A stretch of DNA of 64,000 nt from an uncultured Verrucomicrobiae bacterium (GTDB lineage: Bacteria; Verrucomicrobiota; Verrucomicrobiia; Limisphaerales; UBA11358): positions 43,663 to 107,662 of the forward strand of contig CAWHAH010000016.1 of NCBI GenBank assembly GCA_963827205.1, written 5' to 3'. The notes beneath the pieces were generated by a model. It was not told the origin of the DNA, did not search any database, and worked only from the letters and a program-made list of their open reading frames with translations. The number at the start of each line of letters is the position of its first letter. The first letter of the stretch is position 1. The position numbers were made by a program, and so were the translations under genes. This document shows, one piece after another, positions 25,603 through 61,281 of this stretch.

Positions 25603-25866
25603 ATGCGCGCGATGAACGATGATTTGCTCCGGGCGATTGAACTGGCTCTGGCCAGCGAGTGGGACGCCGCGCACCAACTGGTCCAGCAACACGAAGACGA
25701 CGCCACGGCAGCGTGGATTCATGCCGTGCTGCACAAGATCGAGGGCGACCCGGCCAACAGCCGCTATTGGTATCGCCGCGCTGGCCGGATGGAGCGCGTT
25801 GCCGAGGAACCGCGCGCGGAATTGGCCGCCATTCAGGCCGAGCTTGTCTCACGCTGCGGCCAATGA
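25603..25866 (+). CDS. Small conserved-looking hypothetical protein (87 aa)
   Basis: ORF with ATG at 25603. Its last ~15 codons are duplicated downstream at 26317-26357. Confidence 0.45.
   Translation: MRAMNDDLLRAIELALASEWDAAHQLVQQHEDDATAAWIHAVLHKIEGDPANSRYWYRRAGRMERVAEEPRAELAAIQAELVSRCGQ
25804..25844 (+). repeat. Direct repeat, copy 1 (3' end of the 25603 gene)
   Basis: The 41-nt sequence gaggaaccgcgcgcggaattggccgccattcaggccgagct recurs at 26317-26357 with 3 mismatches. Confidence 0.85.
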
Positions 25867-25887
25867 AACAATCAAACCAAGACAAAT

Positions 25888-26301
25888 ATGAATACTGAAA
25901 TCATCAGCCAAGCTGCCCGCGCGACGTTGGATGGAACCATGCCATTTCCCGAAGTCGTCGGGCAATTGATCGCAGCCGGGGTGGAATATTACCACGTGGA
26001 CTACGTCGGACTGCGTAAAACCTTTTACAGCCCCAGCGGCGACGCCGTGGTGACCGCCATCAATTACGAAGGCCTGCCACCGGTGGCTGCGGATTTTGAC
26101 GCGGCTGCGCTGCGTGCGGACATTTTGGATAGCCAGCGCAATGGGCAGAAATACCGCGACTTCACCCGGCGCGCGATGGAGGCCGGTGTCCAAGGCTACT
26201 TTGCTTTCCTGCGCGGGAAGCGCGTCACCTATTTCGGCCGTCAGGGCGACCAGCGCACCGAATGGTTTCCCGGCGCTGGCCCGGCTAAAACGACGGATTA
26301 A
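25888..26301 (+). CDS. DUF1398-family protein
   Basis: 137 aa. Features seen: PFPEVVGQLIAAGVEYYHVDY and the YRDF...GV..Y pattern typical of DUF1398. Confidence 0.65.
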   Translation: MNTEIISQAARATLDGTMPFPEVVGQLIAAGVEYYHVDYVGLRKTFYSPSGDAVVTAINYEGLPPVAADFDAAALRADILDSQRNGQKYRDFTRRAMEAGVQGYFAFLRGKRVTYFGRQGDQRTEWFPGAGPAKTTD

Positions 26302-26316
26302 CCCGACCGCGTCGCC

Positions 26317-26357
26317 GGGGAACCGCGCGCGGAATTGGCCGCCATCCAGGCCGAACT
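26317..26357 (+). repeat. Direct repeat, copy 2
   Basis: 38 of 41 nt match 25804-25844. It reads GEPRAELAAIQAELRQ-stop in one frame, which would be an alternative C-terminus for the 25603 gene. Confidence 0.85.
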
Positions 26358-26493
26358 CCGCCAATAATTCGGAGGGACGAGTCCCACGAGTCCCAAATTT
26401 TAACCACGGCTTGTCGCGCCGGAGCAAGGCGAAGGCGGAATTCAATTCAACGCGGAGAATTTTGAACCGCAGAGACGCAAAGATATAGGGAAT

Positions 26494-26619
26494 TTACCTG
26501 CCAACTTCTGGAACATGGCAGCATTTGATACCAGCAAAGCTTGCCATCTGGGAAAGCTTTCGGTCTTTCGTCATTATTTTAGCTCCAAGGTAGATTGCAG
26601 TCTGCGCAATATACATATC
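26494..26619 (-). pseudogene. Displaced 3' end (41 codons plus stop) of the IS-interrupted orphan gene
   Basis: After removing the IS and one ATATC copy, the frame continues ...FGD-MYIAQTAIYLGAKIMTKDRKLSQMASFAGIKCCHVPEVGR-stop. Confidence 0.7.
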
Positions 26620-27776
26620 GAGACCTCTGAAAAAGGCCATGTTGGTTGTTTGATTTGATGTCATTGCCCCTGATCAACGGAATATTTGTTCGGCGAGACT
26701 CCGCCATCGGCGGTTCCATCCCCCACGATCGGCGGTTTTGTCCGCTGGACTGCCGTTCTGAGTTGTTTGATTCATGTTCCGGTCAAAGTCGCCAGCCGTT
26801 TGAGGTTCCAACAGACGCATTTAAACTCCAGTTCCAACCGGTTGGGGTCCCGCCCTACATACCGCACCCGCCGGTAACCCGTGCAGCGTTTCCACCAGCC
26901 AAAGATTCTTTCGATCCCGCACCGCAGTCGGCTCAACAGCTGGTTGACCCGCACCGTCGCGTCCCGCAGTTTTTCCCCACGGCTGGGCTTGCGCAAAATC
27001 CCGTTGGCGATGCCGTGCTCACCGCACCATTGGCTGCGGGCTTCACTCCAGTAAGCCTTGTCCGCCACCACCATTTCCTCGTCGCCTTGGACCACCGTTT
27101 CAAACTCCCGGCTGTCATGCACGTTGGCGGCCGTCAGCGTGACCTGTCGGATCAGTGTGTGCGTTTCATCCGCCGCGACATGTGCTTTGTAGCCATAGTG
27201 CGGCTGGCCTCGCTTCACGGTGTAGCCCGCATCGCTATCACCGCCAGCTTTGTCCTCCTTGGTCGGGGCGCGACGAGCCGCCTGCAACAGCGTCGCGTCC
27301 ACCAGCGTGCAGGTTTTGAGGAGGAAGCCCTTTTGTTCCAGTTGCCGGTTGACCAGCACCAGCAGCTCTTCCTGCAAGCCATGTTCGACCAGCCGTTGCC
27401 GGAAGCGGACCAGCGTTGTTTCGTCGGGCACCTTGTCCTGCAAACCCAAACCCACAAACCGCCGCCAACTCAACCGGTCGGCCACCAGTTCCTCGCACTG
27501 CGGGTCCGAGAGGCCATAGCAATGTTGCAGCAAACTCATTTTGAAGAGGGCCAGCGGCGGACAGGGTGGGCGTCCGGTCGTCGCCGGATACATCGCCTGC
27601 AATGCCTTTTCGATGGGCTGCCAATCCAGCGTGCGGTCGAGCCGTTCGAGAAAATCGTTGCCAGGAGTCGTGATCATCAAGCTGTCCAGCAGCCCCATTT
27701 GTGCGTTGGTCGTCGTTTGCATATTCCTCTGACGCACAGTCAAATCGTCCGTTCAAAAGAGTTTTGCAGAGGTCTC
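26620..27776 (-). mobile_element. IS5-family insertion sequence (1157 bp)
   Basis: Terminal inverted repeats GAGACCTCTGAAAAAGG / GAGACCTCTGCAAAACT, a flanking 5-bp direct repeat ATATC (26615-26619 and 27777-27781), and a single DDE transposase ORF. Confidence 0.85.
26772..27743 (-). CDS. IS5-family DDE transposase
   Basis: 323 aa. Motifs seen: the N-terminal LALFKMSLLQHCYGLSD region, DATLL, ADKAY and RCGIERIFGWWK. Confidence 0.9.
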   Translation of the reverse strand: MTVRQRNMQTTTNAQMGLLDSLMITTPGNDFLERLDRTLDWQPIEKALQAMYPATTGRPPCPPLALFKMSLLQHCYGLSDPQCEELVADRLSWRRFVGLGLQDKVPDETTLVRFRQRLVEHGLQEELLVLVNRQLEQKGFLLKTCTLVDATLLQAARRAPTKEDKAGGDSDAGYTVKRGQPHYGYKAHVAADETHTLIRQVTLTAANVHDSREFETVVQGDEEMVVADKAYWSEARSQWCGEHGIANGILRKPSRGEKLRDATVRVNQLLSRLRCGIERIFGWWKRCTGYRRVRYVGRDPNRLELEFKCVCWNLKRLATLTGT

Positions 27777-28594
27777 ATATCACCAAAAACATGCTCGTAG
27801 CCCGGCTCGTCAAATTCCCAGCGTATGCCTTTAGGCTCCGTATCTTCGACAAGAAGTGTTGCGTAGCACAACTCGACGACACGCTTTGACTTTTTGATGT
27901 TGTATTTACATTCTGGAAGCCGTCGCTGTATGTGAGCTTTTAATTTGCTTACGACATTGGGCATTTCTTGAGGCATTGGCAGGTCAGAAGCCTTTCCTGA
28001 CATTCCAAAGGCAAGGCTAATCGGGGTTCGGTCGAGTGAAACCGCAAAGAAAAGTTCGTTGCCTATGTGCGCGCGAATCAACTCCTTTTCAATTTCTATA
28101 CTTTTGCGATTCTCCGCTTTTTGTTTCGCGAATGTTTCCCCTTTTTCCCGTGAAGCTTCTGACAGCTTTGGGATGTCAAATTCGTATTGAAAATACTCGT
28201 CAATTCTTTCTATAAGAACACAGTTAAGCCGTGCATCTATCCCGACGCTGAATACGTTCCCAAGTTTGGAACGAGTTGCTTCGAGTATCAAATCTCTTGT
28301 GTTCGGATTCTCACGAGCAAGCGCAGGCGATACGATAAACGCCTTATCAAGATGTTCTTTGCATTCCCTTTTCCAATCTGAATTGCTGTCAACCACATAC
28401 GTATCTCGCTGGCTGATTACGTCCCGCAGGTTTTCCTTTTCAAATTCGTGTGGTATGTGTTTGCCGCACAAATCAAATAGGGTGCGAGAATGCTCAAGTC
28501 CCTTTTCGATCCGTTCGCGGTCTTGTGGCGATACCTTGGCAAGAATTTCTTGAACCTGCTTTTTGGGCATCGCAAAGAATGGTGGCACTGCCAT
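27740..28594 (-). pseudogene. Low-GC orphan gene (5' part) truncated by the IS5 element; the reconstructed C-terminus is PIN-like
   Basis: The region is visibly AT-richer than its surroundings. The last 13 codons (MRPLQNSFERTI) are IS-derived. I recognise no domain in the N-terminal ~270 aa. Confidence 0.6.
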
Positions 28595-28651
28595 AAAAGG
28601 GATATTGTCATGCTTGGCGATGCTTCATGAACCAAATCATTGTTTCTGCGG

Positions 28652-31563: not shown

Positions 31564-31676
31564 CCGGGGAAATTAAAGTTCGTGCCGTTAAAAAGCGAGT
31601 TGGATTTGGTGACTTGAACAGAAGCAAACAAAGGGAACAAAGATTTAACACCTTCGTTTTGTTTGTTGCTTTCTGT

Positions 31677-33941: not shown

Positions 33942-34021
33942 GAACGGAGAATAAAATGGAAGGCAGGGCGTGGCAAAATGAATCGCCGCGAAAGAACACA
34001 GCGCGGCGGGGCCGCAACCCA

Positions 34022-34096
34022 AGGAGCGCGGACAGCCTTGTCCGCGTGTTCCTGGTGTGCTTTTCGGGACTCGCGGACAAGGCTGTCCGCGCTCCG
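34022..34096. repeat. REPIN-like doublet of the GCGGACAG...CTGTCCGC family
   Basis: ggagcgcggacagccttgtccgcg and its exact reverse complement are separated by ~25 nt. Related copies sit at 37603-37665. Confidence 0.8.
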
Positions 34097-34172
34097 GGAA
34101 AATCTTCGCAAGCGGCGACGATCCTGGAATATAGCACCGTGGTGAACGCCGGCGCTCGCGAGGAAAATTTTC

Positions 34173-34460
34173 TTTGCGCTCAAGCCATTGGGTTTTGCGC
34201 GAGCCAATTCCGGTTTGCGCGAGCGGATTTCGCTTTGCGGAGACAAAATTCACTTGGTACAGGCCATTTCACGGTTTGCGCGGGGCAACTTCCATTTTGC
34301 GCGAGCAATTTTCGATTTGCGCGGGCGTTTTTTTCACCTTGCGCGGACGAAATCTGCTTTGCGCGGGCCATTTCCCAGCCTAGGCGGGGCATTTCGACTT
34401 CTGCGCGGGCAAAAACCGGTTTACGCGGCCATTTTTCAGTTTGCGCGAGTGTGGCAGCAG
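34173..34460 (+). repeat. Tandem array of ~14 degenerate 20-21-bp units with core TTTGCGCG(A/G)GC
   Basis: Unit starts read at 34173, 34194, 34214, 34234, (34254), 34275, 34296, 34316, 34338, 34358, (34380), 34400, 34420 and 34440. The spacing is 20-23 bp throughout. Confidence 0.85.
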
Positions 34461-34656
34461 GCACGCGCCGCCAAACCGAAGCATTTTGACGACATGACTC
34501 CGGTGGAAACGGATACCTTCAAGAAGAAACTCGACCGCAAGTTTAATCCATTCCGGGCGATTGTCGCCAAAGCCGCCCGAGCATGGTCATAAATTAAAAC
34601 GGCGGCGGATGAGCGCACGCCGCACTCCGTCCACCCTCCGTAGCAGAGCTACTGCG

Positions 34657-34876
34657 GAGATTGTGTTTTCCTGCGCAACGTTGAGGCGGCGCAATGCTTT
34701 CTCGTGGCGCAGGTTGGCAACCTGCCGTATCGCCGACTGGCAGTCGGCCGGGCGTCCGCAGCGGGTGGGCCGGCGGATTACCAATCCGCGATACAGCAGA
34801 CAGACTGTCTGCGCTACTTGGGTTGCGGCTGGCCGTGCCAGGAACATCTGTATTTATCTGCCGCCTGAACAGCCTT
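34657..34876 (-). repeat. 220-bp composite repeat, copy A1 (inverted relative to 38638-38857)
   Basis: ~94% identical by manual count (~13 mismatches in 220) to the reverse complement of 38638-38857. Contains palindromes gccgactggcagtcggc and gcagacagnctgtctgc. Abuts the TPR gene stop codon. Confidence 0.9.
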
Positions 34877-36276
34877 CACTGCCCGGCGTAGAAGGCTTCC
34901 ACCTTGGCCGAGACGTCCTTGTAGCCGGCGTCCATTTCGTAAATCTGCTTGAATTGCTCGATGGCCTCCTCTTTTTTGCCCATGCCTTCGAGCACGCAGC
35001 CGAGGTTGTAGATGAGGTCCTTCTTCTCATCGTCGAACACCGGTTTTTCCTTGATGGCGTTCTGGAGCGTGCGGGCGGCGAGGTCGAACATCTTGCGTTT
35101 GCCAAAGCATTGGGCGAGGTAGCTCATGGACGGGAGGCGCTTGTGCGGATTGCCCTGTGCCTTCTGAAATTCCGGAATGGCTTCGCCGATTTTGCCCGCC
35201 TGAAAATACAGCACCCCCATCTCAAACCGGATCGCCAGGTCGGTGGGATACTTTTCGACGCGTTTCTGGCATTCGGAGATTTGGAAATCCAGTCTTTCGG
35301 CCTGGATTTTCGCCGACTGTTCGGCGTGGTCCGGCGCGGAGGCATCGAGCTGTTCTACCTGATGATCGAACCGACGCACGACGGTTTCGGCGATGGCGCG
35401 TTCGAGCGACGGGTCGTTGCCCATCTCGGAATTTCTGATGCGATCATAAAGCGCCAGGGCGCGGTCGAACTGTTTTTTCTGCGTGTAAAGCTCCGCGAGC
35501 GAGCGGACGAGCTTGAGGTTTTTTGGTTCGGTTTCCAGGCGCGCCTCGTATTCGCCGATGAGCCGTCCGGCCACGTCCTCGGCCTTCACGACGCGCTTTT
35601 CCTGTTCGAGCGAAATGGCTTCCTGTTTGTTCTTCAGAATGTCGCGATACGAACCCTGCCCGCCCTCCAGCGAGCTGTAGCCGCCCTTGTCCATGGTCTT
35701 GCGCGCCGACAGGTTTTTCAACGCTTTCGACAGTTCGCCATCGCCGGGGCGCGCGCGCAGGAGGTCGCTGAGGATTTGTTCTCCGCGGCTGGCATCGCCG
35801 CCGCTGGCGGCGAGCGCCTCGGCAAATTCGATCGCCAGACCTTTGTCCTTGGGCGAATTTTTCAACAGGGTTTCGAGCGACAGCACGCCCGTCTGCGGCA
35901 GATCCAGCGCCTGGGCCGCCTCGACAATGAGGTGGTGCGCGGCGGAACTGTTCGGGTCGCCGTTCAAAATCTGCTCGGCGATGACGAGCGCCTCGGCCGG
36001 ATTTTTGCTCATGGCCATCTTGGCCTTGGCGACCTGCGGCGAGGAACCCGCGCCGCTCAACATCCTCTTAAAAAATCCGCTGCCGCCGTCGCCGGCCTTC
36101 CGGAATTGCGCGTCGCGCAAGGCCTTGCGGCACTCGAAAAAGCCCGGTTCCTTCTCCAACACCTGATTGAACAGCGCGATGGCGTAATCAAAATTCTCCC
36201 GTTGCGCGGCTTCGTTGCCCTTGGTGAAAAGCACGCGCAGGTCGCGCGAAATTTCGTTGATGCTCTTTTCTGCCAT
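34876..36276 (-). CDS. TPR-repeat protein
   Basis: 466 aa with multiple TPR-like helical repeats (e.g. AIALFNQVLEKEP, ALALYDRI, AIEQFKQIYEMD). ATG at 36276. Confidence 0.75.
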   Translation of the reverse strand: MAEKSINEISRDLRVLFTKGNEAAQRENFDYAIALFNQVLEKEPGFFECRKALRDAQFRKAGDGGSGFFKRMLSGAGSSPQVAKAKMAMSKNPAEALVIAEQILNGDPNSSAAHHLIVEAAQALDLPQTGVLSLETLLKNSPKDKGLAIEFAEALAASGGDASRGEQILSDLLRARPGDGELSKALKNLSARKTMDKGGYSSLEGGQGSYRDILKNKQEAISLEQEKRVVKAEDVAGRLIGEYEARLETEPKNLKLVRSLAELYTQKKQFDRALALYDRIRNSEMGNDPSLERAIAETVVRRFDHQVEQLDASAPDHAEQSAKIQAERLDFQISECQKRVEKYPTDLAIRFEMGVLYFQAGKIGEAIPEFQKAQGNPHKRLPSMSYLAQCFGKRKMFDLAARTLQNAIKEKPVFDDEKKDLIYNLGCVLEGMGKKEEAIEQFKQIYEMDAGYKDVSAKVEAFYAGQ

Positions 36277-36345
36277 AAAGTTTGCTTTTGATTGAACCAG
36301 CATCGCGCCGGAGACGCCAAAAATCAATCCCGAATGCCTTCAAAA

Positions 36346-37425
36346 TCAGCCGCATTGTGCCTTGTGCCGTAACGCGTGGTCCACCAGCACCAACGCTGTC
36401 ATGGCTTCCACCATCGGCACGGCGCGCGGCAACACGCAGGGATCATGGCGTCCGCGGCCCTTGAGTGTGGTGTTGTGAAATTGCACGTCCACCGTGTCCT
36501 GCGCGTGCATGACCGTGGCGACGGGTTTGAAGGCGACCCGGAAGAAAATCGTCTGGCCGTTGGAAATGCCGCCTTGAATCCCGCCGGAAAAGTTCTTGGT
36601 CGTGACCACCTTTCCGTGCTTCGCGCGGAACGGGTCGTTGTGCTCGCGTCCGGTGAGCACGATGCCGCCGAAGCCGGAGCCGATTTCAAACGCCTTGGAC
36701 GCGGGCAGACTCAGCATGGCCTTGGCCAGGTCCGCTTCGAGTTTGTCAAACACCGGCTCGCCCCAGCCGGCGGGCACGCCGCGCGCGACGCCTTCGACGA
36801 TGCCGCCGACGGTGTCGCCGGCCTGACGCATCTTTTCGATGAGCCGGATCATTTTTTCCGCCGTTTGCCTGTCGGGGCAGCGGACGATGTTGGATTCGAT
36901 GTTCTGGAACTTCACCTTGTCCGGATTCACGTCCGCGACGAGGCGCTGGACTTGTTTGACGTAGGCCAGGATTTCGACGCCGTGCCGTTCGCGCAGAATC
37001 TTTTTGGCGATGGCGCCGGCGGCGACGCGCCCAACGGTTTCGCGCGCGCTGGCGCGACCGCCACCCTGCCAGTTGCGGATGCCGTATTTGGCGAAGTACG
37101 TGAAGTCCGCGTGCGACGGGCGGAACTTGGTTTTCATTTCCGCGTAGGCTTCGGGCCGGGCGTCCTCGTTTTTGACCCACAGACAAATCGGCGTGCCGAG
37201 CGTTTTGCCACCGAACGTGCCGGAAAGAATTTGCACCGTATCGGACTCCTTGCGCGGTGAGACGATTTTGGACTGGCCGGGACGGCGGCGGTCCAAATCG
37301 GGCTGGATGTCGGCCTCGGAGAGCTTGAGGCGCGGCGGGCAGCCGTCCACGACCACGCCCACGCCGCCGCCGTGGGATTCGCCCCACGTCGTAATGCGGA
37401 ACAGTTGCCCGAAGGTGCTCGCCAT
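36346..37425 (-). CDS. aroC: Chorismate synthase
   Basis: [32 protein letters not shown]-terminus, conserved throughout. Confidence 0.95.
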
Positions 37426-37709
37426 GCTGGGATGATGCGAAAAAAGCCCTGCGCGGTCAAATCTATCGAAGGGACGCGTCGGAGGGACGAGTTACACGAG
37501 TCCTTGACTAAATTTACGATATGCGATTTACGATTTACGCGTCCTTCACCGATTTCTGCTCACCGCGTAAGCCGTCTATCGAGACCTCTGCAAAACCGGA
37601 GTGCGGACAGCTTTGTCCGCCAATTCGGGTGCCGTGTAGCCTGCGGACATGGCTGTCCGCGCTCCGCCATGCTGGAATAATGCGAAAAAACCGGGGCGGG
37701 GTCAAATCT
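37417..37709. other. ~48-bp direct duplication of the aroC start region (37417-37464 and 37661-37709) bracketing a ~195-bp mosaic of short repeats
   Basis: gctcgccatgctgggatgatgcgaaaaaagccctgcgcggtcaaatct versus gctccgccatgctggaataatgcgaaaaaaccggggcggggtcaaatct. The interior holds members of at least three repeat families and a solo IS end. Confidence 0.75.
37581..37596 (+). mobile_element. Solo copy of the IS5-element terminal inverted repeat
   Basis: GAGACCTCTGCAAAAC is identical to the first 16 nt of the right end of the IS at 27776. It is preceded by TATC, as at the IS junction. Confidence 0.55.
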
Positions 37710-37810
37710 GGTGCATCTTAATCTTAATCCGGCTCTTAATCGTAATCGCCCCGGTGAACAAGATTATGATTACGATGATGATTAAGATTAAGACTTGAGA
37801 CAAATCCCGC

Positions 37811-38700: not shown

Positions 38701-38857
38701 CGCAGACAGTATGTCTGCTGTATCGCGGATTGGTCATCCGCCGGCCCACCCGCTTCGGACGCCCGGCCGACTGCCAGTCGGCGATACGGCAGGTTGCCAG
38801 CCTGCGCTACGAGCAAGCATTGCGCCGCCTCAAAGTTGCGCAGGAAAACAAAATCTC
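38638..38857 (+). repeat. 220-bp composite repeat, copy A2
   Basis: See 34657-34876. The two copies form an inverted pair 3761 bp apart. Confidence 0.9.
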
Positions 38858-41198: not shown

Positions 41199-41265
41199 CC
41201 GCGCTTGTGAAAGCGCGGTCGGGATTAACGGATGAAAAACTCCGCGTTTTCACAAACGCGGCTAC
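41195..41265 (+). repeat. REP doublet (REPIN-like), left flank of the RAYT gene
   Basis: gtagccgcgcttgtgaaagcgcgg ... cgttttcacaaacgcggctac. The 71-bp sequence recurs at 41855-41925 with 2 mismatches. It overlaps the upstream stop codon. Confidence 0.85.
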
Positions 41266-41266
41266 G

Positions 41267-41851: not shown

Positions 41852-41854
41852 AGC

Positions 41855-41925
41855 GTAGCCGCGCTTGTGAAAGCGCGGTCGGGATTGACGGATGAAAAAC
41901 TCCACGTTTTCACAAACGCGGCTAC
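41855..41925 (+). repeat. REP doublet, right flank of the RAYT gene
   Basis: Direct copy of 41195-41265. Confidence 0.85.
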
Positions 41926-50198: not shown

Positions 50199-50403
50199 GG
50201 ATGGAAAATCGCGGCAAAGCGTCCGAATCGTTTCCGCAAGCCCGTCAGGGCTGACATCTCTGTAGCTTGGCGATTACAAAAATGGATGAAGCTCCGTAGG
50301 AGCGGCATCTTCAGAGTAATGGACAGAATATGCCGCCCCGACGGGGCTGGAATTTATTTTGATTCACGGTGCTACAAAGATGTCGCGCCTACGGCGCTAA
50401 ATT

Positions 50404-50448
50404 ACCCGCGCCAGTTCCTTCACGCTCTACGGCGACCCGGTGATTGTG
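50404..50448 (+). repeat. Direct repeat, copy 2 (displaced copy of the miaB 3' end)
   Basis: acccgcgccagttccttcacgctctacggcgacccggtgattgtg. The intervening 50199-50403 consists of short hairpin repeats (e.g. gccccgacggggc, gcgcctacggcgc). Confidence 0.85.
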
Positions 50449-50468
50449 AATTTGCAGCGGCAGAACAG

Positions 50469-51056
50469 TTACAGCCTTTCCGAAACCTGTTCTTTCATCA
50501 GCAGGTCAACTGCCTTCTCTAATTTTTCACCCCTAACATTTTTCTCCCGAATCACACCTTTGCCATCAAGAACGTAAATGGTTGGCCAACCTCGAACATT
50601 CCAAGCATGACTAATCGATCCTGCTGGGCCGTTCGTTCCATTCCAAAACGAACGCCAAATCATTGACTCCTTGGCGACTGCCCGTTTTGCATCGTTCAAT
50701 CTTGGATCTCCGTTCACTCCAATCAAAACAAACGGCTGATTCTTCATCCGTTCAACGAGCCTGCGCTCATCCGGCACCATCGCCATGCACGGCCCGCACC
50801 AACTCGCCCAAAATACGAGCACAGTCACTCGCCCACGATAGTCGCTTAGTTTGAAGTTAACTCCGTCCAAATCCTTGGCCTCAATGTCGGGTGCCATCTG
50901 GCCAATCCGTAAGTTCCGCAGCTCAAATAATTCCTGCTCCGCTTCTTGGCCGAGGGTTAGTTGGCCGCTGAGGGCATTCCTCAAACGTGGACAGTCGGCA
51001 TAATCTCTAACAACCAAGTCAAAGGCTTTTTCAGCTTCGATGGCGAGTGAATCCAC
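50469..51056 (-). CDS. TlpA-like thioredoxin-fold thiol:disulfide oxidoreductase domain, with no signal peptide of its own
   Basis: FWASWCGPC active site. It is in frame with the 51072-51644 ORF, separated by one TAG. Confidence 0.7.
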   Translation of the reverse strand: MDSLAIEAEKAFDLVVRDYADCPRLRNALSGQLTLGQEAEQELFELRNLRIGQMAPDIEAKDLDGVNFKLSDYRGRVTVLVFWASWCGPCMAMVPDERRLVERMKNQPFVLIGVNGDPRLNDAKRAVAKESMIWRSFWNGTNGPAGSISHAWNVRGWPTIYVLDGKGVIREKNVRGEKLEKAVDLLMKEQVSERL

Positions 51057-51071
51057 ATCGGATGTTTTCTT

Positions 51072-51644
51072 CTATTCGGCTTCAGCGAATTTCCGTTTTG
51101 CCTGCCAAGCCAGCGCAATCATTGCCTGTCCCCGAGCTGTTCGGTCTGGGTTTTTCTCAGCCACGTTCTGGATTAGGTTAATCGCTGCGGAGTAAGAATC
51201 GGCTTTTGCGTCCGGTGGATAATAGCCAACCCATGCTATGATTTTGCCAACTTTCGGATCGGCGGCATAATACTGCGTTGCCAGTTCCATGGCTGGCTTT
51301 CCTGCCGGCAGATAATAGGCCCGCGGAATGGTCAGTACCCATTCCAAAGCAGTAAACCCAGAGTCCGACTTGGGATCAAGTTTGGCCAGCGCAACTGCTT
51401 CCGACAAAAGATCGGACTGTTTTTTATCGAATTCTTTCCAAAGTTCGTCCCTTTTCTTCCTCCCTTCGGCTGTGTCAGGCAAGGTTTCCGCTGTTTTGAA
51501 AAACGCAGACTCAGCCTCCGCATTTTCCCTCTGAATCGAAGCCAATCGGTTGGTGGGTTGAACCAAAGCATTTGCATTCTCGTCGGCTGCCCGCGTTGCT
51601 GACAAAAAAACAAAAAATAGAAAGAGGAGAAAAATGGCTTTCAT
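51072..51644 (-). CDS. Secreted N-terminal domain protein; probably the N-terminal half of the TlpA-like protein
   Basis: Signal peptide MKAIFLLFLFFVFLSATRA. Ends at the TAG at 51072-51074, in the same frame as the downstream Trx-domain ORF. The region is lower in GC. Confidence 0.55.
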   Translation of the reverse strand: MKAIFLLFLFFVFLSATRAADENANALVQPTNRLASIQRENAEAESAFFKTAETLPDTAEGRKKRDELWKEFDKKQSDLLSEAVALAKLDPKSDSGFTALEWVLTIPRAYYLPAGKPAMELATQYYAADPKVGKIIAWVGYYPPDAKADSYSAAINLIQNVAEKNPDRTARGQAMIALAWQAKRKFAEAE

Positions 51645-51749
51645 CGTTTGTGGATCATTTTTCCGAAGGTCACGCTAGTGGAGAACTGGAAATTGTCCAG
51701 TTTGAATTTTTCGTGTCCTTTGGTGTCCATTCGTGGTTAACTCTTCAAA

Positions 51750-53275: not shown

Positions 53276-53314
53276 TCAGTCGTGCGTCCTGCCGCTGATG
53301 GCGAATCGCCGCGC

Positions 53315-54409: not shown

Positions 54410-54417
54410 CGCGCCGG

Positions 54418-55047: not shown

Positions 55048-55199
55048 GACGTGAACAGAGTCGCGGAAACGTGCCAAAAGTCCATGAAATTTTATGACGG
55101 GGAGTAATTGTCGGTAGTGCGCAAACAGCAGTCCTCTGGGCTGGGTCTGCCAAAATTGATTCGCTGAAACGCTTTTGCCGTTGTAAGGTTCGCGCAATT

Positions 55200-55895
55200 A
55201 TGGCACTGGCGGACATCAGACGGGAATACTCGCTCGGCGGCCTGAAACGCGCGGAACTGGACGCGAATCCAGTTGCGCAATTCAAGCAATGGTTCGCGCA
55301 GGCGTCGGGCGGCAGCCGCTGGCGGAAAGTCGGCATCGCCCTCTACAAACTCTGGCACGCCATCCTCGGCCATGTGCCGATTGACGTGAACGCGATGGTG
55401 CTGGCAACGGTGGACCAGGCTGGACGCCCTTCCACCCGCGCCGTGTTGCTCAAAGGCGTGGATGAGCGCGGCTTCGTTTTTTACACGAATTACGACAGCC
55501 GCAAGGGGCTTGAACTGGCCGAAAATCCCAATGCGGCCCTGACATTTTACTGGCCGGATTTGGAACGGCAGATCTGCGTCGCTGGCACGGCGAGCAGAAT
55601 TTCCAGCGAAGAAACCGAGGCGTATTTCAAAAGCCGTCCGCGGGGCAGCCGTCTGGCGACGTGGGCGTCGAACCAGCGCGACGTGGTGGCCGACCGCGCG
55701 GCGCTTGATGCGAAGTGGAACGAGATGGCGAGGAGATTTCCCGGCGACGTGCCATTGCCGCCGGATTGGGGCGGTTACGTGTTGAAACCGGAACGCATCG
55801 AATTCTGGCAGGGGCGGCCAAACCGGTTGCACGACCGTTTTTGTTATACGCGGCAACCGGACTATTCGTGGAAACTGGAACGGCTCGCGCCGTAG
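55200..55895 (+). CDS. pdxH: Pyridoxamine 5'-phosphate oxidase
   Basis: Motifs seen: RREY, LATVD..GRPS.R.VLLKG, FYTNY.SRKG, IEFWQGRPNRLHDR and a terminal RLAP. Confidence 0.9.
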   Translation: MALADIRREYSLGGLKRAELDANPVAQFKQWFAQASGGSRWRKVGIALYKLWHAILGHVPIDVNAMVLATVDQAGRPSTRAVLLKGVDERGFVFYTNYDSRKGLELAENPNAALTFYWPDLERQICVAGTASRISSEETEAYFKSRPRGSRLATWASNQRDVVADRAALDAKWNEMARRFPGDVPLPPDWGGYVLKPERIEFWQGRPNRLHDRFCYTRQPDYSWKLERLAP

Positions 55896-55977
55896 CGGCG
55901 TCTCGGCAAAGCGCCGGAAATCCGGGAAAATAATGCGGCTTTCTCCCGAAGCCACCACGCCTGTTTCACGGAGGCGC

Positions 55978-56814
55978 CTAAAATTTGTAGGCCAAGCCGC
56001 TGATCAGTTTCACATCGTTGTCCTTGCGGCCGGGCGCGGGGTCATTGGCAAAGTTGTCCTGCACCACCGTCCGCAGGCTGAGTCGCTTGGTGAGCGCGGC
56101 TTCGGCGCCCACTTCGGCATTGACGAGAAAATTGTCGGGCTGGTCCGCCTGCGGCAGGAATTCCACATTCTGCCAGAAGCGCGTGTGTTCGTCCGTTTTG
56201 TGTTCGAAGCGTTCGGCCAGGCGCAGCGTGGGATAAGTGTGGTATTCGTCGTCCAGTTTTTCATACAAGACGGCCGGGCCGAATTCGCCCGCCAGCGACG
56301 TTTGCTTGTTCTTGACGAAGTAATAGCCGGCGCCGGGGCTGAACGTGAACCGATAAGTCACGTCCGCGATGCCGTCATGCAACGCGTCGGCGCGCGCGTA
56401 CCCGTACCAGCGTTCGCCAAACAGACGGTTGTATTGGCCAAAACCATGCAAGGTTTCGTTGTTTTCCACCGCATTGTTTTCGCCATAAGAACCTTCGAGG
56501 CCCAGGGTCCATTCGTTGGTCGGGTTGTTCCGATGGGTCCTGAAACTGCCGGAGGCCAGCACGCTTTCGCTGTTGCCGCTGGTCAACGTCAGGCCAAAGG
56601 CCACAGTGCTTTCCCACGCCGGCTTGTTCGTGGGGATTACGGTGCCCGCGGTGGCAGGCGCGGCGTTGGTCGCCGCTGCCAAAAGCGCCAGGGCGCCGTT
56701 GCTGTCGCTGGCCGGTTTGTTGGTTGACACCGTGATGGTTTGATTGGTGTCGCCAGCGCGACCGCACACGGTCAAAACGGCCAGAACAAACAAGATCAGA
56801 ATATATTTTTTCAT
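55978..56814 (-). CDS. DUF481 (YdiY-like) outer-membrane beta-barrel protein
   Basis: Signal peptide, alternating beta-strand pattern, and a C-terminal ...SGLAYKF. Confidence 0.65.
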   Translation of the reverse strand: MKKYILILFVLAVLTVCGRAGDTNQTITVSTNKPASDSNGALALLAAATNAAPATAGTVIPTNKPAWESTVAFGLTLTSGNSESVLASGSFRTHRNNPTNEWTLGLEGSYGENNAVENNETLHGFGQYNRLFGERWYGYARADALHDGIADVTYRFTFSPGAGYYFVKNKQTSLAGEFGPAVLYEKLDDEYHTYPTLRLAERFEHKTDEHTRFWQNVEFLPQADQPDNFLVNAEVGAEAALTKRLSLRTVVQDNFANDPAPGRKDNDVKLISGLAYKF

Positions 56815-56954
56815 TTTTCTTTCACGCCGACAAATTGAATTCCGACCGGGGAAACCGATGCAGCGGAAATCCTGACAGCAAACAGCCCGGAAACAACTCG
56901 AGCGCGGCCATTCTAACCCAAACCATCAAGCGGGCAAGTAAACGTTCTTGAAAA

Positions 56955-57086
56955 TTATTTCTCCGGCTCGCCTTTGTCGGTGGTGTCTTCCTTGTCTCCG
57001 CCAATGACCGAGGCCACGGCCTGAAGTTGGTCGCCGGCTTCCAACTCAATCGGCTTCACGCCCCGCGCATTGCGGACGGTTATTTC
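56955..57086 (-). pseudogene. Orphan copy of the gyrA 3' end (43 codons plus stop)
   Basis: Translates as EITVRNARGVKPIELEAGDQLQAVASVIGGDKEDTTDKGEPEK-stop, against the genuine GyrA end ...TGRNTQGVKLIELESGDKLQAIAPVIGEDKEDAAGEAEPAK-stop. Similarity also covers ~15 nt past the stop. Confidence 0.7.
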
Positions 57087-58417
57087 TTTGGGTTATCGGA
57101 TGGCTGCCCTTTGCTCTCCCGGCTGGAAACGAAGATAGTATCGGCCCCCACCATTTCTTCCAGCGTGATAAAATCCATGCCTGACGTAGCCGGTCGGATT
57201 TTGGGTTCAGGCGGTTCGGCTTGGACCGCCTTGGGCGGGGAAGCGCCTGGCGGGGGTGGCGGAGGCGGAATGGGGGTTGATTTCTTCGCCGCCAGATTGT
57301 TTGTGACCAGAATGGTTCCATCATCATCGGTCAAATAACTTTCCTCCGTCCGCACGCGGGTGGCTTCCGCGAGCAACGATTCCCACTGGCGTTGCACGGT
57401 GCGTTTGGGAGGCGCCCGGAAGGGGATCAGGCGGAATTCGCCAGCGGTCAGGGACAGCAATTGATGAAAAGCCTTTTCTCCGACCAGCTTTCCGGTCGAG
57501 GCGTGAATGATGGCGCCGCCTTCAATGTAAATCTCGCCGGCGATCTGGTGATTCCGGATTTCAAGGACCAGGGAGTTGCCGCCCAGGCATTCCAGTTGGA
57601 TGACATCGAGCAAGCCTGTCTCGCTCAAGCTGCTGATAAAATCGTTGCTGTCCGACCACCGCAGGACGTTGGTCAACATGTTGAAAACGAGCTTCCACCC
57701 ATCCTCGTCGCCTGGTTTTAAGAGGAAAAGCTCCGCTCCATTGGCCAGACAGGTGGCCCGCCGGCTTTCGTCGCTTTGTGCGGTCAGGATGACTTTTTTG
57801 ATGTTGGGATATTGCTGATGAATAATGCCCAGCAACTGGACACCGTCCAGCAGCGGCATGCCGATGTCCAGTACGACCAGATGAATCAGCTTTTGTTGCA
57901 GGATGGATAGCGCCATGTCTGCGGATGAGGCCGTGTAGATTTCCCAGTCTTTGTCCACTTGGGCGGCAGACAGATCGGTGATCATCTCGAGAAAGGCCAG
58001 GCTGTCATCCACGAAGAGCACGCGATAGGCTTTCCGACTGTCTGTGGATTCAGATTTTTGTGCCGGGGCGGGGGATGAAACACCAGCCGATGGCGGCGCG
58101 GCTAACTGGGGTGCCGCCGCCGGGGCGGGTTCGGAAATCTCCAAGCGCAATTCCACCAGACCCAGGCGCATCGTTTGCCCGGGCTGCAAGACCGCTTCGG
58201 AAATCGCGTTCCCGCCGATGACCGTGCCATTGGTTGAGCGCAAATCGCGAACGACCAGTTCATTGCCGCGCAACATCACCTCGCAGTGCTGGTTGGAAAT
58301 CGACTTTTCAACGATTTGAAACGCATTCTTTTCGCCGCGCCCAATCGTGACCCAGCGCCCGCCCAATTCATGCGACAAGCCAGCCAATCCATCACTGATG
58401 ACTACAAGCCTCGACAT
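57080..58417 (-). CDS. FHA domain, response-regulator receiver and DUF4388 (PatA-like) signalling protein
   Basis: N-terminal FHA (GRGEKNAFQI...ISNQHCEV...DLRSTNGT), REC (VLFVDDS...VVLDIGMP) and C-terminal LLDVIQLECLGG (DUF4388). Confidence 0.8.
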   Translation of the reverse strand: MSRLVVISDGLAGLSHELGGRWVTIGRGEKNAFQIVEKSISNQHCEVMLRGNELVVRDLRSTNGTVIGGNAISEAVLQPGQTMRLGLVELRLEISEPAPAAAPQLAAPPSAGVSSPAPAQKSESTDSRKAYRVLFVDDSLAFLEMITDLSAAQVDKDWEIYTASSADMALSILQQKLIHLVVLDIGMPLLDGVQLLGIIHQQYPNIKKVILTAQSDESRRATCLANGAELFLLKPGDEDGWKLVFNMLTNVLRWSDSNDFISSLSETGLLDVIQLECLGGNSLVLEIRNHQIAGEIYIEGGAIIHASTGKLVGEKAFHQLLSLTAGEFRLIPFRAPPKRTVQRQWESLLAEATRVRTEESYLTDDDGTILVTNNLAAKKSTPIPPPPPPPGASPPKAVQAEPPEPKIRPATSGMDFITLEEMVGADTIFVSSRESKGQPSDNPKK

Positions 58418-58638
58418 GCAAATCTCCGAGATTCTCCGACAGCGTTATTGCTGTGCGTTCCCCATCAAACCAAAAGTTGCTCTCAACCAAACGGTTATAA
58501 AAGTTATTTCCGATAATGCAACCTGCTATTGTAAAACCGGCACCAGAACTTTTATGCCCCAGCGGCGGCAACACGTAAGCAGTGTCCATGCCGCCGGCGG
58601 TCGGAATACCGGGCTGGGAGCGGCGGAACGTTTGAGAA

Positions 58639-61281
58639 TTATTTTGCCGGCTCGGCTTCGCCGGCAGCATCTTCCTTATCCTCGCCGATGACCGGCGCGA
58701 TGGCCTGAAGTTTGTCGCCGGATTCCAATTCAATCAGTTTCACGCCCTGCGTGTTGCGGCCGGTTTCGCGGATGTCCTTCACGGATGTGCGCACCATCTG
58801 GCCTTTGACGGTGATGAGCATGATTTCGTCTGCGTCGCGTACGGTCAGCGCGCCCACTACGCCGCCGGTCTTTTCGGTGGTTTTCATCGTGATGATGCCC
58901 TTGCCGCCGCGGGATTGGACGCGGTATTCCTCGAAGTCCGTCCGTTTGCCGATGCCGTTTTCGCCGGCGACCAGCAGTTTCGCGTCCGGCACGACGATCG
59001 CCAGCGCGACCACTTCGTCGCCTTTCGACAAGTTAATACCGCGCACGCCCGTGGCGGGCCGGCCCATCGGACGGGCATCCTCCTCGTTGAAGCGGATGCT
59101 CATGCCGTCGCGGGTGATGAGGACGACTTCGTTCTGGCCGGTCGTCAGCTTCACTTCGATCAAAAGGTCGCCCGGATCAATGCCAATGGCGATGATGCCG
59201 CCCTTGCGAACGTTGGCGAAATCAGCCAACGCGGTCTTCTTAACTGTGCCTTGTTTGGTCGCGAAGAAGACAAAGCCCGGTTGTTCCCACGTCACGTCTT
59301 CCTTGTTCGCGTTGGTTTTGGACAACACGCGAATCAGCGCGGCGATGGTCTCACCCGCCTTCAATTCGAGCAGATTGGCAATGCTGCGGCCCTTGGCGGC
59401 GCGGCCCATGTCGGGAATTTCATGCACGCGCTCGACATAGACGCGGCCGGTGTTCGTGAAAAACATCAAATAATCGTGCGTGCTGGCGGTGAAGAGGTGC
59501 TCGATGAAATCCTTGTCCTCGTCAGTTGCACCTTCCCTGGTCGTCATGCCGATGACGCCCTTGCCGCCGCGGCGTTGAGCGCGATAGCTGGAGATGTTTG
59601 TGCGTTTGATGAGGCCGTTGTGCGTGAGCGTGATGATGACCCCTTCGTTGGCGATAAGGTCTTCGATGTTGATTTCGCCTTCGTCAGGCACGAGGTCGGT
59701 CAGGCGCGGCGTGGCGTATTTTTCCTTGATGGCTTTCAGTTCGGTTTTGATGATGGCCAGCACGCGCGCTTCCTTGGCCAGGATGTCCATCAAATCCTTG
59801 ATGCGCGCGAGCAGTTCCTTGTATTCGGTTTCGACCTTGTCAATTTCCAGGCCGGTCAACTGGTAGAGGCGCAATTCCAGAATCGCGTCCACCTGCCGTT
59901 CGGTCAGCGCGTAGCGGCCCTTGGTCAGGCGCTCCTCGTTGCGAATCAAAATGCCCCAGCGCTCAACCTGCTTTTGCGTCCACTCGAACGCCAGCAGCTT
60001 GACCCGCGCTTCCTCGCGCGTCTTGCTGCCGCGGATGATTTTGATGAATTCGTCGAGATTGGCCAGCGCGCAGAGATAGCCTTCCAGAATTTCCGCGCGT
60101 TCCTCGGCCTTCTTCAACTGGAACCGCGTGCGGCGCAGCACGACTTCGCGCCGGTGCTCGATGTAGCAATTGATGAGTTCCTTCAGCCCGAGCGTCTTGG
60201 GCCGGCCATGATCAATGGCCAGCATGTTGACCGCAAAACTCGTTTCCAGCGCCGTCTGCTTGTACAAATTGTTGATGACAACCTTGGCGATGGCGTCGCG
60301 TTTGAGTTCGACGACGACCCGCGTATTTTCATCCGATTCGTCGCGGATGGCGGTAATGTCGGTGAAGCCCTGGACCTTCTCGTTCACCAGTTCGGCGACG
60401 CGCTCGACGAGCACCGCGCGATTGACGTTGTAGGGGATTTCCGTGATGACGATTTGTTCCTTGCCGCCCTTGTGCTGTTCCACGCCCACCTTGCCCCGGA
60501 CCTTGACGCTGCCGTGGTCGGTGGTGAAATATTCCTTGATGACTTCCAGTCCGCACACCATGCAGCCGGTCGGGAAATCCGGGCCTTTGACGAATTTCAT
60601 CAGCCCCTTGACCGAGATATTCGGGTCGTCAATCTGCGCGCAGATGCCGTCAATGATTTCACCGAGATTGTGCGGCGGAATGTTCGTGGCCATGCCGACG
60701 GCGATGCCGGTGCCGCCATTGACGAGCAGATTGGGAAACGCGGCCGGGAAAACGGTCGGCTCGGTGCGGGTCTCGTCGTAATTGGGGACGAAATCCACCG
60801 TGTCCTGGTCCATGTCCTCCATCAGTGCGGCGCCGAGGTGTGTCATGCGCGCCTCGGTATAACGCATGGCAGCGGGCGGATCGCCTTCCACGGAGCCAAA
60901 ATTGCCCTGGCCGTCCACGAGCCGTTCGCGCATGGCCCACGGCTGGGCCATGTGCACGAGCGTCGGATAAATCACCGCCTCGCCGTGCGGATGATAGTTG
61001 CCGCTGGTGTCGCCGCAAATCTTGGCGCACTTGCGATGCTGGCGGTTCGGAAACAGCGAGAGATCGTGCATCGCCAGCAGGATGCGCCGTTGCGAAGGTT
61101 TGAGGCCGTCGCGCGCGTCGGGCAGGGCGCGCGAAATGATCACGGACATCGAGTAATCAAGAAAGGAGTTCTTGATTTCCTCGGCCACGTTGACCTTGGC
61201 AATTTTTTCACCCGAAGCGAACAGCGGCGTGTTGCTCACCGGCAAATCGTTTGAATCTTTGGGTTTTGTTTCGTCGGGCAT
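58639..61281 (-). CDS. gyrA: DNA gyrase subunit A
   Basis: Full-length conservation including AMRYTE (catalytic Tyr) and the C-terminal beta-pinwheel repeats. Confidence 0.95.
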   Translation of the reverse strand: MPDETKPKDSNDLPVSNTPLFASGEKIAKVNVAEEIKNSFLDYSMSVIISRALPDARDGLKPSQRRILLAMHDLSLFPNRQHRKCAKICGDTSGNYHPHGEAVIYPTLVHMAQPWAMRERLVDGQGNFGSVEGDPPAAMRYTEARMTHLGAALMEDMDQDTVDFVPNYDETRTEPTVFPAAFPNLLVNGGTGIAVGMATNIPPHNLGEIIDGICAQIDDPNISVKGLMKFVKGPDFPTGCMVCGLEVIKEYFTTDHGSVKVRGKVGVEQHKGGKEQIVITEIPYNVNRAVLVERVAELVNEKVQGFTDITAIRDESDENTRVVVELKRDAIAKVVINNLYKQTALETSFAVNMLAIDHGRPKTLGLKELINCYIEHRREVVLRRTRFQLKKAEERAEILEGYLCALANLDEFIKIIRGSKTREEARVKLLAFEWTQKQVERWGILIRNEERLTKGRYALTERQVDAILELRLYQLTGLEIDKVETEYKELLARIKDLMDILAKEARVLAIIKTELKAIKEKYATPRLTDLVPDEGEINIEDLIANEGVIITLTHNGLIKRTNISSYRAQRRGGKGVIGMTTREGATDEDKDFIEHLFTASTHDYLMFFTNTGRVYVERVHEIPDMGRAAKGRSIANLLELKAGETIAALIRVLSKTNANKEDVTWEQPGFVFFATKQGTVKKTALADFANVRKGGIIAIGIDPGDLLIEVKLTTGQNEVVLITRDGMSIRFNEEDARPMGRPATGVRGINLSKGDEVVALAIVVPDAKLLVAGENGIGKRTDFEEYRVQSRGGKGIITMKTTEKTGGVVGALTVRDADEIMLITVKGQMVRTSVKDIRETGRNTQGVKLIELESGDKLQAIAPVIGEDKEDAAGEAEPAK

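Follow-up and report, generated by a model that had tools for sequence, protein, structure and literature searches.

Truncated duplicates of conserved gene ends beside flexible islets in uncultured Verrucomicrobiia, and their probable origin as recombination scars

Four gene ends present in two copies

The ends of four conserved genes, p87, aroC, miaB and gyrA, are duplicated within a 64,000-nt stretch of contig CAWHAH010000016.1 (GCA_963827205.1; hereafter the window), which derives from an uncultured Verrucomicrobiae bacterium of Limisphaerales UBA11358. Every pair consists of the intact end of its gene and a truncated second copy, located 245-1684 nt away and 79-92% identical over 53 nt (p87, case 1), 45-49 nt (aroC, case 2), 50 nt (miaB, case 3) and 134-141 nt (gyrA, case 4) (Table 1). 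The nearest records to the window are metagenome-assembled genomes (MAGs) of soil, peat and lake Verrucomicrobiia (Limisphaerales/Pedosphaera-like), and comparisons were made with sister strains of ~99-100% identity (L001-L014, L146-L152), 80 species-level loci around gyrA (L015-L094), 51 metagenome loci around p87 (L095-L145) and seven loci around aroC (L153-L159).

A direct-repeat scan of the whole window (at least 35 nt, copies within 4 kb) returned only seven families, four of them these gene-end pairs and the other three a tandem array (34193-34436), an internal GyrA protein repeat and a 71-nt palindromic element; together with independent assemblies, this bears out the places at which a preliminary description of the same DNA had located four direct repeats. 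A blastn repeat scan found five pairs in the window and none in each of 20 Markov-1 shuffles, which rules out chance or low sequence complexity as their origin (0/20 shuffles yield any such pair). The DNA comes from a metagenome assembly whose population shows strain variation, and strain mixtures might have produced chimeric contigs with repeated ends, but the duplications are present in independent ENA, NCBI and Logan assemblies that differ in sample and assembler, and other species carry orthologous joints. On these grounds assembly artefact was ruled out, its probability being vanishingly small.

Neither tRNA nor tmRNA genes occur in the window, and no Rfam family was matched at the repeats. 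Pfam detected no transposase or integrase between the copies of the four pairs (inserts of 0.2-1.6 kb), and there was no integrase or recombinase among the open reading frames (ORFs) scanned in the inserts, the window and the p87 loci, the sole mobility gene found among those of the window being an IS5-type transposase within an islet (26772-27743). The four target genes have no sequence in common. Consistent with the preliminary description, insertion sequence transposition, and with it a transposon target-site duplication, is ruled out by the variable repeat length (45-141 nt) and by inserts that possess neither inverted-repeat ends nor a transposase. Two further candidates were rejected: an integron cassette, since each repeat consists of coding sequence from the adjacent gene and differs from case to case, with no integrase found and no Rfam match at the repeats, and a diversity-generating retroelement, which was ruled out by eye (mismatches not adenine-specific, housekeeping targets, no reverse transcriptase seen).

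The earlier statement that every duplication takes in the start or stop codon of its gene holds for the aroC start codon and the gyrA TAA, whereas in cases 1 and 3 the repeat ends 22 and 12 nt, respectively, short of the functional stop in the window, the tails beyond it differing between copies. In sister strains, the distal p87 copy of L001 has a complete tail (...AELRSRRAA; tails are written up to the residue before the stop codon throughout) and the distal miaB copy of L013 ends in ...IVNL, each reaching its own in-frame stop.

Table 1. Repeat pairs and associated features at the four duplicated gene ends, in window positions. REP, repetitive extragenic palindromic; MITE, miniature inverted-repeat transposable element.
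Feature	Position	Strand	Remarks
Case 1 pair, p87 3' end	25792-25844 / 26305-26357		53 nt, 91% identity, spacing 513
p87, small conserved gene, function unassigned	25585-25866	+	3' end 25792-25866 is the proximal functional copy
DUF1398 gene between the p87-end copies	25888-26301	+	Pfam PF07166; stop 3 nt before the remnant
Distal p87 3'-end remnant, DRVAGEPRAELAAIQAELRQ-stop	26305-26367	+	Tail replaced in the window strain
Strain-variable islet	26362-28650		Begins within the last codons of the p87 remnant
IS5-type DDE transposase gene in the islet	26772-27743	-	Pfam DDE_Tnp_1/DUF772
Case 2 pair, aroC 5' end	37420-37464 / 37665-37709		45 nt, 84% identity (49 nt with one indel), spacing 245
aroC with 39-nt upstream leader	36346-37464	-	Pfam Chorismate_synt; 37389-37464 is the proximal functional copy
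Mosaic of REP-like hairpin modules between the aroC copies	37465-37660		Modules again at 22556-22631 and at other loci
Distal copy of aroC leader and start codon	37661-37709	-	Runs on into the native trpA-side spacer
Palindromic MITE-like element in the trpA-aroC spacer	37710-37800		Inserted at GATTTG; inverted repeat
Case 3 pair, miaB 3' end	50137-50186 / 50399-50448		50 nt, 90% identity, spacing 262
miaB	48750-50198	+	Pfam UPF0004, Radical_SAM, TRAM; 50137-50186 is the proximal functional copy; tail ...ILVED
Dispersed REP/MITE-like element, ~160 nt	50237-50398	+	Right end ...CGCGCCTACGGCGCT abuts the miaB remnant
Distal miaB 3'-end remnant, ...IVNL allele type	50399-50453	+	Remnants also in L023, L061, L064
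Strain-variable islet, AhpC/TSA-like gene and 190-aa ORF (both minus strand)	50454-51700		Starts at the end of the miaB remnant; Pfam
Case 4 pair, gyrA 3' end	56948-57081 / 58632-58765		134 nt, 80% identity, spacing 1684
gyrA	58632-61281	-	58632-58765 is the proximal functional 3' end; tail ...EAEPAK
gyrA-RR445 spacer (58418-58638) and RR445 (57080-58417)	57080-58638	-	Pfam FHA, Response_reg, DUF4388
Novel joint: RR445 stop TAA (57080-57082), then CCGTCC (57074-57079)	57074-57082	-	Opens the 8-nt microhomology
Distal gyrA remnant, 125 nt	56955-57081	-	In frame, TAA kept, tail ...GEPEK; orthologous remnant in L030
Remnant-DUF481 spacer (56815-56954), DUF481 (55978-56814), p288 (55092-55958)	55092-56954	-	Pfam DUF481

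The joint downstream of gyrA

Gene order downstream of gyrA varies among the 80 related species, with gyrA-DUF481-p288 the arrangement in 24, gyrA-p288 in 17, gyrA-RR445-p288 in nine, gyrA-DUF481-RR445-p288 in eight and gyrA-RR445-DUF481-p288 in two. DUF481 is missing from at least 26 species. The window has the order gyrA-RR445-DUF481-p288, with the gyrA remnant between RR445 and DUF481; elsewhere the remnant was found only in L030, with the same joint at the RR445 stop, and the gyrA end is single-copy in 78 of the 80 species. The 221-nt spacer between gyrA and RR445 is collinear with that of remnant-free gyrA-RR445 species (L026, L049, L045, L073, L015), and the 140-nt spacer between the remnant and DUF481 matches the gyrA-DUF481 spacer of L044 and L022. 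Since both spacers correspond to junctions that exist alone elsewhere, the window joins two native junction types. The distal gyrA copy has no indel and has retained its TAA stop, and the block comprising the remnant, spacer, DUF481 and p288 is collinear with gyrA-DUF481-p288 genomes, p288 being the probable homologous anchor.

Both parental sequences can be read at this joint. On the minus strand the window has ...AAATAA-CCGTCCGC-AAT (CCGTCCGC = 57072-57079) and L030 has ...AAATAA-TCGGCCGC-AAC, giving a recombinant consensus of ...AAATAA-(C/T)CG(G/T)CCGC-AA(C/T)... for the two. The first parental sequence, in which the p288 start region follows the RR445 stop in gyrA-RR445-p288 genomes (at least nine species), is ...AAATAA-(C/T)CGGCCGCC..., and the second, gyrA at position -125, is GAA(G/A)CCGGCCGCAAC in most species. 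As CCGGCCGC is contained in both, the gyrA joint sits on an 8-nt microhomology. The tails are likewise of two types, with the functional ...EAEPAK resembling those of gyrA-RR445 genomes and the remnant ...GEPEK resembling the ...GPEK of gyrA-DUF481 genomes.

These features would be explained if a gyrA-RR445-p288 chromosome had received a gyrA(-125..end)-spacer-DUF481-p288 piece from a gyrA-DUF481-p288 lineage, with homologous anchoring in p288 and an illegitimate join at CCGGCCGC. Judged by its sequence, the gyrA case appears to have the defining anatomy of homology-facilitated illegitimate recombination (HFIR), in which a single homologous anchor is combined with an illegitimate joint at 3-10 bp of microhomology and ~1 kb of foreign DNA is acquired beside the anchor (de Vries & Wackernagel 2002; Prudhomme et al. 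2002, as summarised in PMC3240628). RR445, which lies between the repeats and had been described as inserted cargo, is better read as resident, with the remnant and DUF481 as the incoming DNA. Assignment of the remnant to a donor clade by identity over its 125 nt was uninformative, all values falling at 72-82%, and the seven synonymous and 23 non-synonymous codon differences between the gyrA copies offer too few sites to separate models. As a separate observation, DUF481 of L053 lies within a 62-nt direct repeat (92% identity; 1788-1849 / 2806-2867) that is non-coding on both sides and does not occur in the other loci.

The same joint could also have arisen within one genome by in-situ duplication, either as a true long target duplication through filling of staggered breaks or as a microhomology-mediated tandem duplication, with subsequent divergence and loss or replacement. 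CCGGCCGC could equally mediate an intragenomic tandem duplication of gyrA(-125..end)-RR445, the events are old enough for 8-21% divergence between copies, and repeats above 30 bp, inserts below 20 kb, the lack of a mobility gene and a single copy at empty sites are the hallmarks of 'insertion with long target duplication' (ILTD). However, a tandem duplication at gyrA gives gyrA-RR445-remnant-RR445, so that a second swap to DUF481 with its native spacer would be needed, and we consider this origin unlikely.

Tail alleles, remnant borders and islet exchange

The miaB-p184 interval, recovered from nine genomes, provided a second site at which alleles could be compared. L044 and L056 are empty sites, in which nothing separates the miaB stop from the p184 upstream region, whilst an islet without any remnant follows miaB in L039 and L076. 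Remnants measure 47-50 nt in the window and L013, 57 nt in L023, at least 110 nt in L061 and 63 nt in L064, with differing left borders. Intact and remnant tails are ILVED and IVNL in the window, IVE and IVNL in L023, IVNL and ILE in L061, and IVNL and IMNL in L064; these combinations are reciprocal between species, and every type serves as the functional end in some species. Between-lineage recombination could produce such a pattern in one step, whereas in-situ duplication would require an extra, later allelic replacement in each lineage across the four species. The differing, reciprocal tails therefore favour distinct donor and recipient lineages, although later allelic replacement or a two-step intragenomic route would also fit. 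The 'cargo' of case 3 is a ~160-nt REP/MITE-like element with copies in L001, L031, L045, L062, L050, L131 and L097, whose right terminus adjoins the miaB remnant in L023 too. Its end (...GCGCTGGGAAAATCC in other copies) and miaB (TTGAAAATCACC) have GAAAAT(C) in common, which is suggestive only as the microhomology of the miaB joint, and donor-clade comparison on the 50-nt miaB core was uninformative owing to its conservation.

At p87, a family of 3180 homologues with no Pfam family and the usual end ...AELRSRxxx, both window copies are normal family ends. Most p87 loci are single-copy, and in other metagenome loci a second, partial 3' end lies downstream of various neighbours, including a PpoB2 copper chaperone (L122), a BRO-N protein (L130) and a 514-aa ORF (L101). 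The second copy of L117 is nearly full length, with a PD40 protein and a 290-aa ORF as neighbours, and a remnant only is present after a PQQ dehydrogenase in L140/L141 and after a C1 peptidase in L145. Altogether six different neighbours precede p87 remnants (DUF1398, PpoB2, BRO-N, PQQ dehydrogenase, peptidase C1 and the PD40 protein), and no insert at a p87 locus encodes an integrase. DUF1398 homologues (82-87% identity) occupy three unrelated genomic contexts with unrelated flanks, identifying DUF1398 as an accessory gene. The joint of the p87 remnant, GGATTAA-CCC-GACCGC, recurs in the more distant L095, which makes the DUF1398 cases of the window and L095 one old event. The synonymous and non-synonymous differences between the window p87 copies (4:2, by eye) involve too few sites to separate models.

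Several further observations concern the p87 and DUF1398 families. A 290-aa ORF without a Pfam match in L139 (4284-5156) carries p87 residues 45-86 in frame as its C-terminal segment and is possibly a gene fusion produced by a joint of this sort; the same contig carries miaB 0.6 kb upstream of it. Many p87 members (P0005, P0012, P0020, P0032 and others; L101, L117) end in ...AELTTDEHR instead of ...AELRSRxxx, the ...TTDEHR tail being a translated dispersed repeat module, ACCACGGATGAACACCGATGAAC, joined directly after the AEL codons, which indicates a recurrent swap of gene tails for REP-like DNA. In an unrelated context, after a sigma-70 gene in L160, a DUF1398 homologue stands within a 15-nt direct repeat, GAAGCCCGCAAACG (~2459-2473 / 2966-2980), that may be due to chance, and the ~22 nt of leader before its DUF1398 ATG (AACAAT.AACCAA.GACAAT) are conserved in the window as well.

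At p87, remnants begin anywhere between residue 15/36 and residue ~70 of the 87, and at miaB their lengths vary from 47 to at least 110 nt; this variation at one and the same gene speaks against the proposal that insertion is aimed at gene boundaries. It also bears on the other mechanism put forward in the preliminary description, site-specific integration by tyrosine- or serine-recombinase elements that carried a replacement gene end in attP and later lost their recombinase, in the manner of cis-mobilizable elements (CIMEs). Phages and integrative and conjugative elements are well known to integrate into the 3' ends of protein genes and to duplicate the gene end in doing so (discussed in PMC2853133); in two of our cases the gene between the copies is co-oriented with the target, with its stop 0-3 nt from the remnant, and L154-L156 encode a phage-type integrase downstream of the TPR gene adjoining aroC. 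This reading is already largely refuted and appears highly improbable: besides the lack of an integrase in the inserts or scanned window ORFs, of tRNA and tmRNA genes and of a common target sequence, the borders of independent events at one gene differ, the allele types of the copies differ, two of the 'cargoes' are only ~200 bp of REP-like DNA, and the gyrA joint is an 8-nt microhomology between two native chromosomal sequences.

The aroC case has an empty counterpart in L153, where trpA and aroC are divergent across a compact 80-nt spacer with a single leader copy (GATTTGACC...CCAGC-ATG). In the window species the trpA-side spacer and distal copy are followed by REP-like modules and then by a second leader with the real aroC; the distal copy of sister strain L011 is 76 nt long (leader and codons 1-12), the window having since lost 64 nt. 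The proximal copy starts at GATTTG, the 6-nt target duplication of the MITE at 37710-37800, an element with ends TCTTAATCTTAATC...GATTAAGATTAAGA that shows this 6-nt duplication only. In L154-L159 the trpA-aroC spacer is enlarged both by inserted MITE and REP sequences and by a unit of the MITE and ~30 nt of spacer (GTTTCAAGTTTCAAGCGGGATTTG) that has been amplified in tandem two to three times. The explanation developed for gyrA and miaB may be carried over to aroC by analogy only. The neighbourhood also contains a 226-nt inverted repeat of 94% identity (34657-34882 / 38632-38857), its second arm comprising the last 69 nt of trpA with 157 nt of downstream DNA and its first arm the reverse complement, which begins immediately beyond the TPR gene stop codon (gene at 34876-36327, minus strand). 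It constitutes a fifth gene-end remnant, inverted and 3.7 kb away, which is found in this species only and is absent in L153-L159, and it may stem from an inversion-linked duplication or an inverted incoming fragment. The 71-nt palindromic REP-like element (GTAGCCGCG...CGCGGCTAC) occurs as a 97%-identical pair (41195-41265 / 41855-41925) flanking a 226-aa ORF without a Pfam match (41225-41905, minus strand), and a related module is located upstream of aroC in L157.

The joints of cases 2 and 3 are bordered by REP-like hairpins, and REP sequences are reportedly join points of tandem duplications (Shyamala et al. 1990), an association that lends itself to in-situ duplication. It could equally mean that REP/MITE hairpin modules, or an unlinked enzyme such as a REP-associated tyrosine transposase (RAYT), cause breaks or template switches at gene ends. 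REP-like modules stand exactly at the joints of cases 2 and 3 and in L023, p87 tails have repeatedly been replaced by REP modules right after ...AEL to give ...TTDEHR, and in L154-L159 the trpA-aroC MITE and part of the spacer have together been amplified in tandem. However, REP modules are lacking at the joints of cases 1 and 4 and of most p87 events, the window showed no RAYT or Y1 transposase, and REP modules fill most of the intergenic DNA, so that adjacency is expected by chance. A REP-driven origin, which might apply to cases 2 and 3 but could not account for cases 1 and 4, is accordingly quite improbable, and very improbable is its stronger form, a dedicated process (through REP/MITE modules or an unlinked, undescribed enzyme) that would break DNA preferentially at gene termini and build long duplications, making conserved gene ends programmed docking sites for accessory genes and the whole an integrase-less analogue of the integron.

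Self-comparison of 1.21 Mb (window and species-level loci) revealed ~20 distinct non-intragenic repeat pairs, in most of which a conserved gene has one of the copies at its terminus; such frequencies are biased by the choice of loci around p87 and gyrA. None of the pairs exceeds 97% identity, a further point against in-situ duplication. Gene-end remnants with unrelated DNA between the copies recur in related species at p87, miaB, gyrA, gcvP and p288, in agreement with the earlier suggestion that the four cases reflect one recurrent process. They include gcvP 3'-end duplications in L098, L100/L105/L142, L139 and L143, and a 78-nt second copy (83%) of the p288 3' region in L033 (7867-7943 / 9827-9903), after a PhoU-PHO4 phosphate-transporter pair that is present or absent downstream of p288 among species (L023 and L039 are without the block). 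From the loci compared, duplicated gene ends appear to be a general feature of the clade.

DNA beside conserved genes differs between lineages of this clade, forming flexible islets, and in the sister strains these differences begin at the last codons of the remnants. Homology breaks exactly at the ends of the distal copies in cases 1 and 3, ending at 26361 and returning at 28651 for p87, and ending at 50453 and returning at 51701 for miaB (L013/L014). Mismatches are clustered at both borders; in case 3, three of the four found over 5.7 kb lie no more than 90 nt ahead of the break, and three fall no more than 220 nt beyond it. This clustering indicates that whole islets are swapped by homologous recombination, with tracts ending in or next to the remnants. 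An exact-protein look-up for a donor of the AhpC islet returned the same species only, always with the duplication. The fuller distal copies in L001, L013 and L011 likewise identify the distal copies as decaying remnants of once-complete gene ends. A 'clean' outcome of islet exchange is seen at a BioB-like radical-SAM gene, from the last codons of which window 22498-22646 and L001 5780-6759 are wholesale substitutions of one another, with differing C-terminal tails, 150 nt of intergenic DNA in the window vs 980 nt in L001 (including a copy of the 160-nt REP/MITE element) and no duplication.

Two other features of the window are recorded here. A fluoride riboswitch (252-331, plus strand; Rfam RF01734, 37.2 bits, above the gathering score) is located at the 5' end of an ORF (245-1273) encoding a calcineurin-like phosphoesterase. 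The tandem array at 34193-34436 is irregular, with a 20-nt unit of the TTTGCGCG(A/G)GC type at spacings of 20, 42 and 62 nt, and extends over the 3' portion of a 177-aa ORF (33956-34489) without a Pfam match.

Origin of the remnants and relation to known systems

We think it likely, while well short of certain, that the duplicated gene ends are scars of events in which DNA from diverged relatives was joined once by homology and once by microhomology. DNA of a diverged relative, carrying the same conserved gene with different neighbouring DNA, would enter the cell; one end would undergo homologous recombination in a shared flanking gene, and the other, inside the conserved gene, would undergo illegitimate joining where a few bases happened to match. 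The chromosome would thereby retain its intact gene end and gain a truncated allelic copy together with the donor DNA following it. Two routes could lead to this product, HFIR itself, or closure of the fragment into a circle at the microhomology and its integration by one crossover within the gene end. Short, diverged remnants would then survive, since longer ones would recombine out, and would decay neutrally, whilst marking, and potentially anchoring, borders for islet swaps by ordinary homologous recombination. The parents would accordingly be different lineages rather than parts of one genome, and the mechanism read at gyrA would extend to cases 1-3.

Several points weigh against this account. 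Both parental sequences are readable at one joint only, that of gyrA; miaB shares only GAAAAT(C), and for p87 and aroC the parental sequences were not recovered. The events are old, with cases 1 and 4 shared with L095 and L030 and predating the species split, and cases 1-3 fixed in all strains seen. Their age makes the 8-21% divergence between copies uninformative, and that of case 4 looks like neutral decay. No donor can be named, and the strains compared include no filled and empty pair at near-100% identity. The differing tails could also come from later allelic replacement of the functional copy. HFIR is moreover rare in experiments, at 10^2 to 10^6 times below homologous recombination (PMC3240628), and the scar model presumes DNA uptake by these uncultured bacteria. 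Finally, all remnants are short (~50-250 nt), for which survivorship would be the reason.

Likeness to HFIR is closest at gyrA, with p288 as the anchor, DUF481 and the gyrA fragment as the foreign block, the 8-nt microhomology and the absence of the block from alternative genomes, and the islets after the p87 and miaB remnants follow the same logic. HFIR, however, is known from experiment, whereas our cases are natural genomes of uncultured Verrucomicrobiia, and the 'foreign' DNA is here homologous to a resident gene, which results in a gene-end duplication rather than a simple insertion-deletion. Campbell-type integration of a circularised fragment by a single crossover, the main outcome in E. 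coli conjugation, also leaves direct duplications flanking the insert (PMC3240628). It resembles the present cases in the duplicated homologous segment at either side and in its one illegitimate closure joint, and differs in that only 50-130 nt of diverged homology are available here; the end product is the same as that of HFIR.

Contrary to the view that no integrase-less system of this kind had been described, the resulting pattern is already known as ILTD, and our cases are new examples of a known pattern. ILTD of restriction-modification genes involves repeats of 46-423 bp and no mobility genes (Nobusato et al. 2000; Furuta et al. 2010, PMC2853133); in some instances the repeat reaches into the 3' end of a gene, as with 15 bp of HI0105 and the 46-bp repeats in Haemophilus influenzae, the empty site is single-copy and the mechanism is unresolved in the literature (PMC2853133). 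Repeats of 45-141 nt around inserts of 0.2-1.6 kb without a mobility gene, and empty sites in L044/L056, L153, 78/80 gyrA species and most p87 loci, conform to this description. The inserts, by contrast, are not restriction-modification systems but DUF1398, a response regulator, REP DNA, PhoU-PHO4 and others, and the repeats are 79-95% identical as opposed to mostly 93-100% in ILTD. The differing allele types of the two copies would also speak for two lineages rather than for a duplicated target.

A second published parallel is provided by the orphan 3'-end and immunity arrays of Rhs (rearrangement hotspot), contact-dependent inhibition and type VI secretion loci. Successive displacements there deposit truncated 3' ends of the upstream gene beyond the active copy, an outcome ascribed to HFIR anchored in the conserved upstream region (Kirchberger et al. 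2017, PMC5361080). Truncated 3' ends left beyond an intact copy and, on our reading, HFIR-type working are common to both; those loci, however, are polymorphic toxin systems under diversifying selection, whereas the genes affected here are housekeeping genes (gyrA, miaB, aroC, gcvP) with no toxin/immunity logic. CIMEs and other att-bounded elements offer a further comparison, in that a gene 3' end is duplicated and the target gene left intact in both. In CIMEs, and in phage 21 and e14 at icd, this arrangement occurs and small recombinase-less derivatives exist, but such elements depend on their cognate integrase and on an invariant crossover core, whereas the remnants described here have variable borders, no integrase was found, and one joint is plain microhomology.

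ILTD has been catalogued since 2000 without a mechanism, mostly at restriction-modification genes, and the same pattern is now seen at housekeeping genes of uncultured soil and peat Verrucomicrobiia. The parental arrangements and joint microhomology at gyrA, together with the reciprocal alleles at miaB, suggest one-ended homologous recombination between diverged lineages as a possible source of such 'target duplications'. For annotation, this carries the warning that DNA between the repeats is not necessarily the incoming DNA. Ultimately, if the pattern is general, gene-end remnants would be a cheap marker in MAGs for flexible islets and for counts of illegitimate recombination, and would allow the uptake and recombination of foreign DNA by these uncultured bacteria to be inferred.

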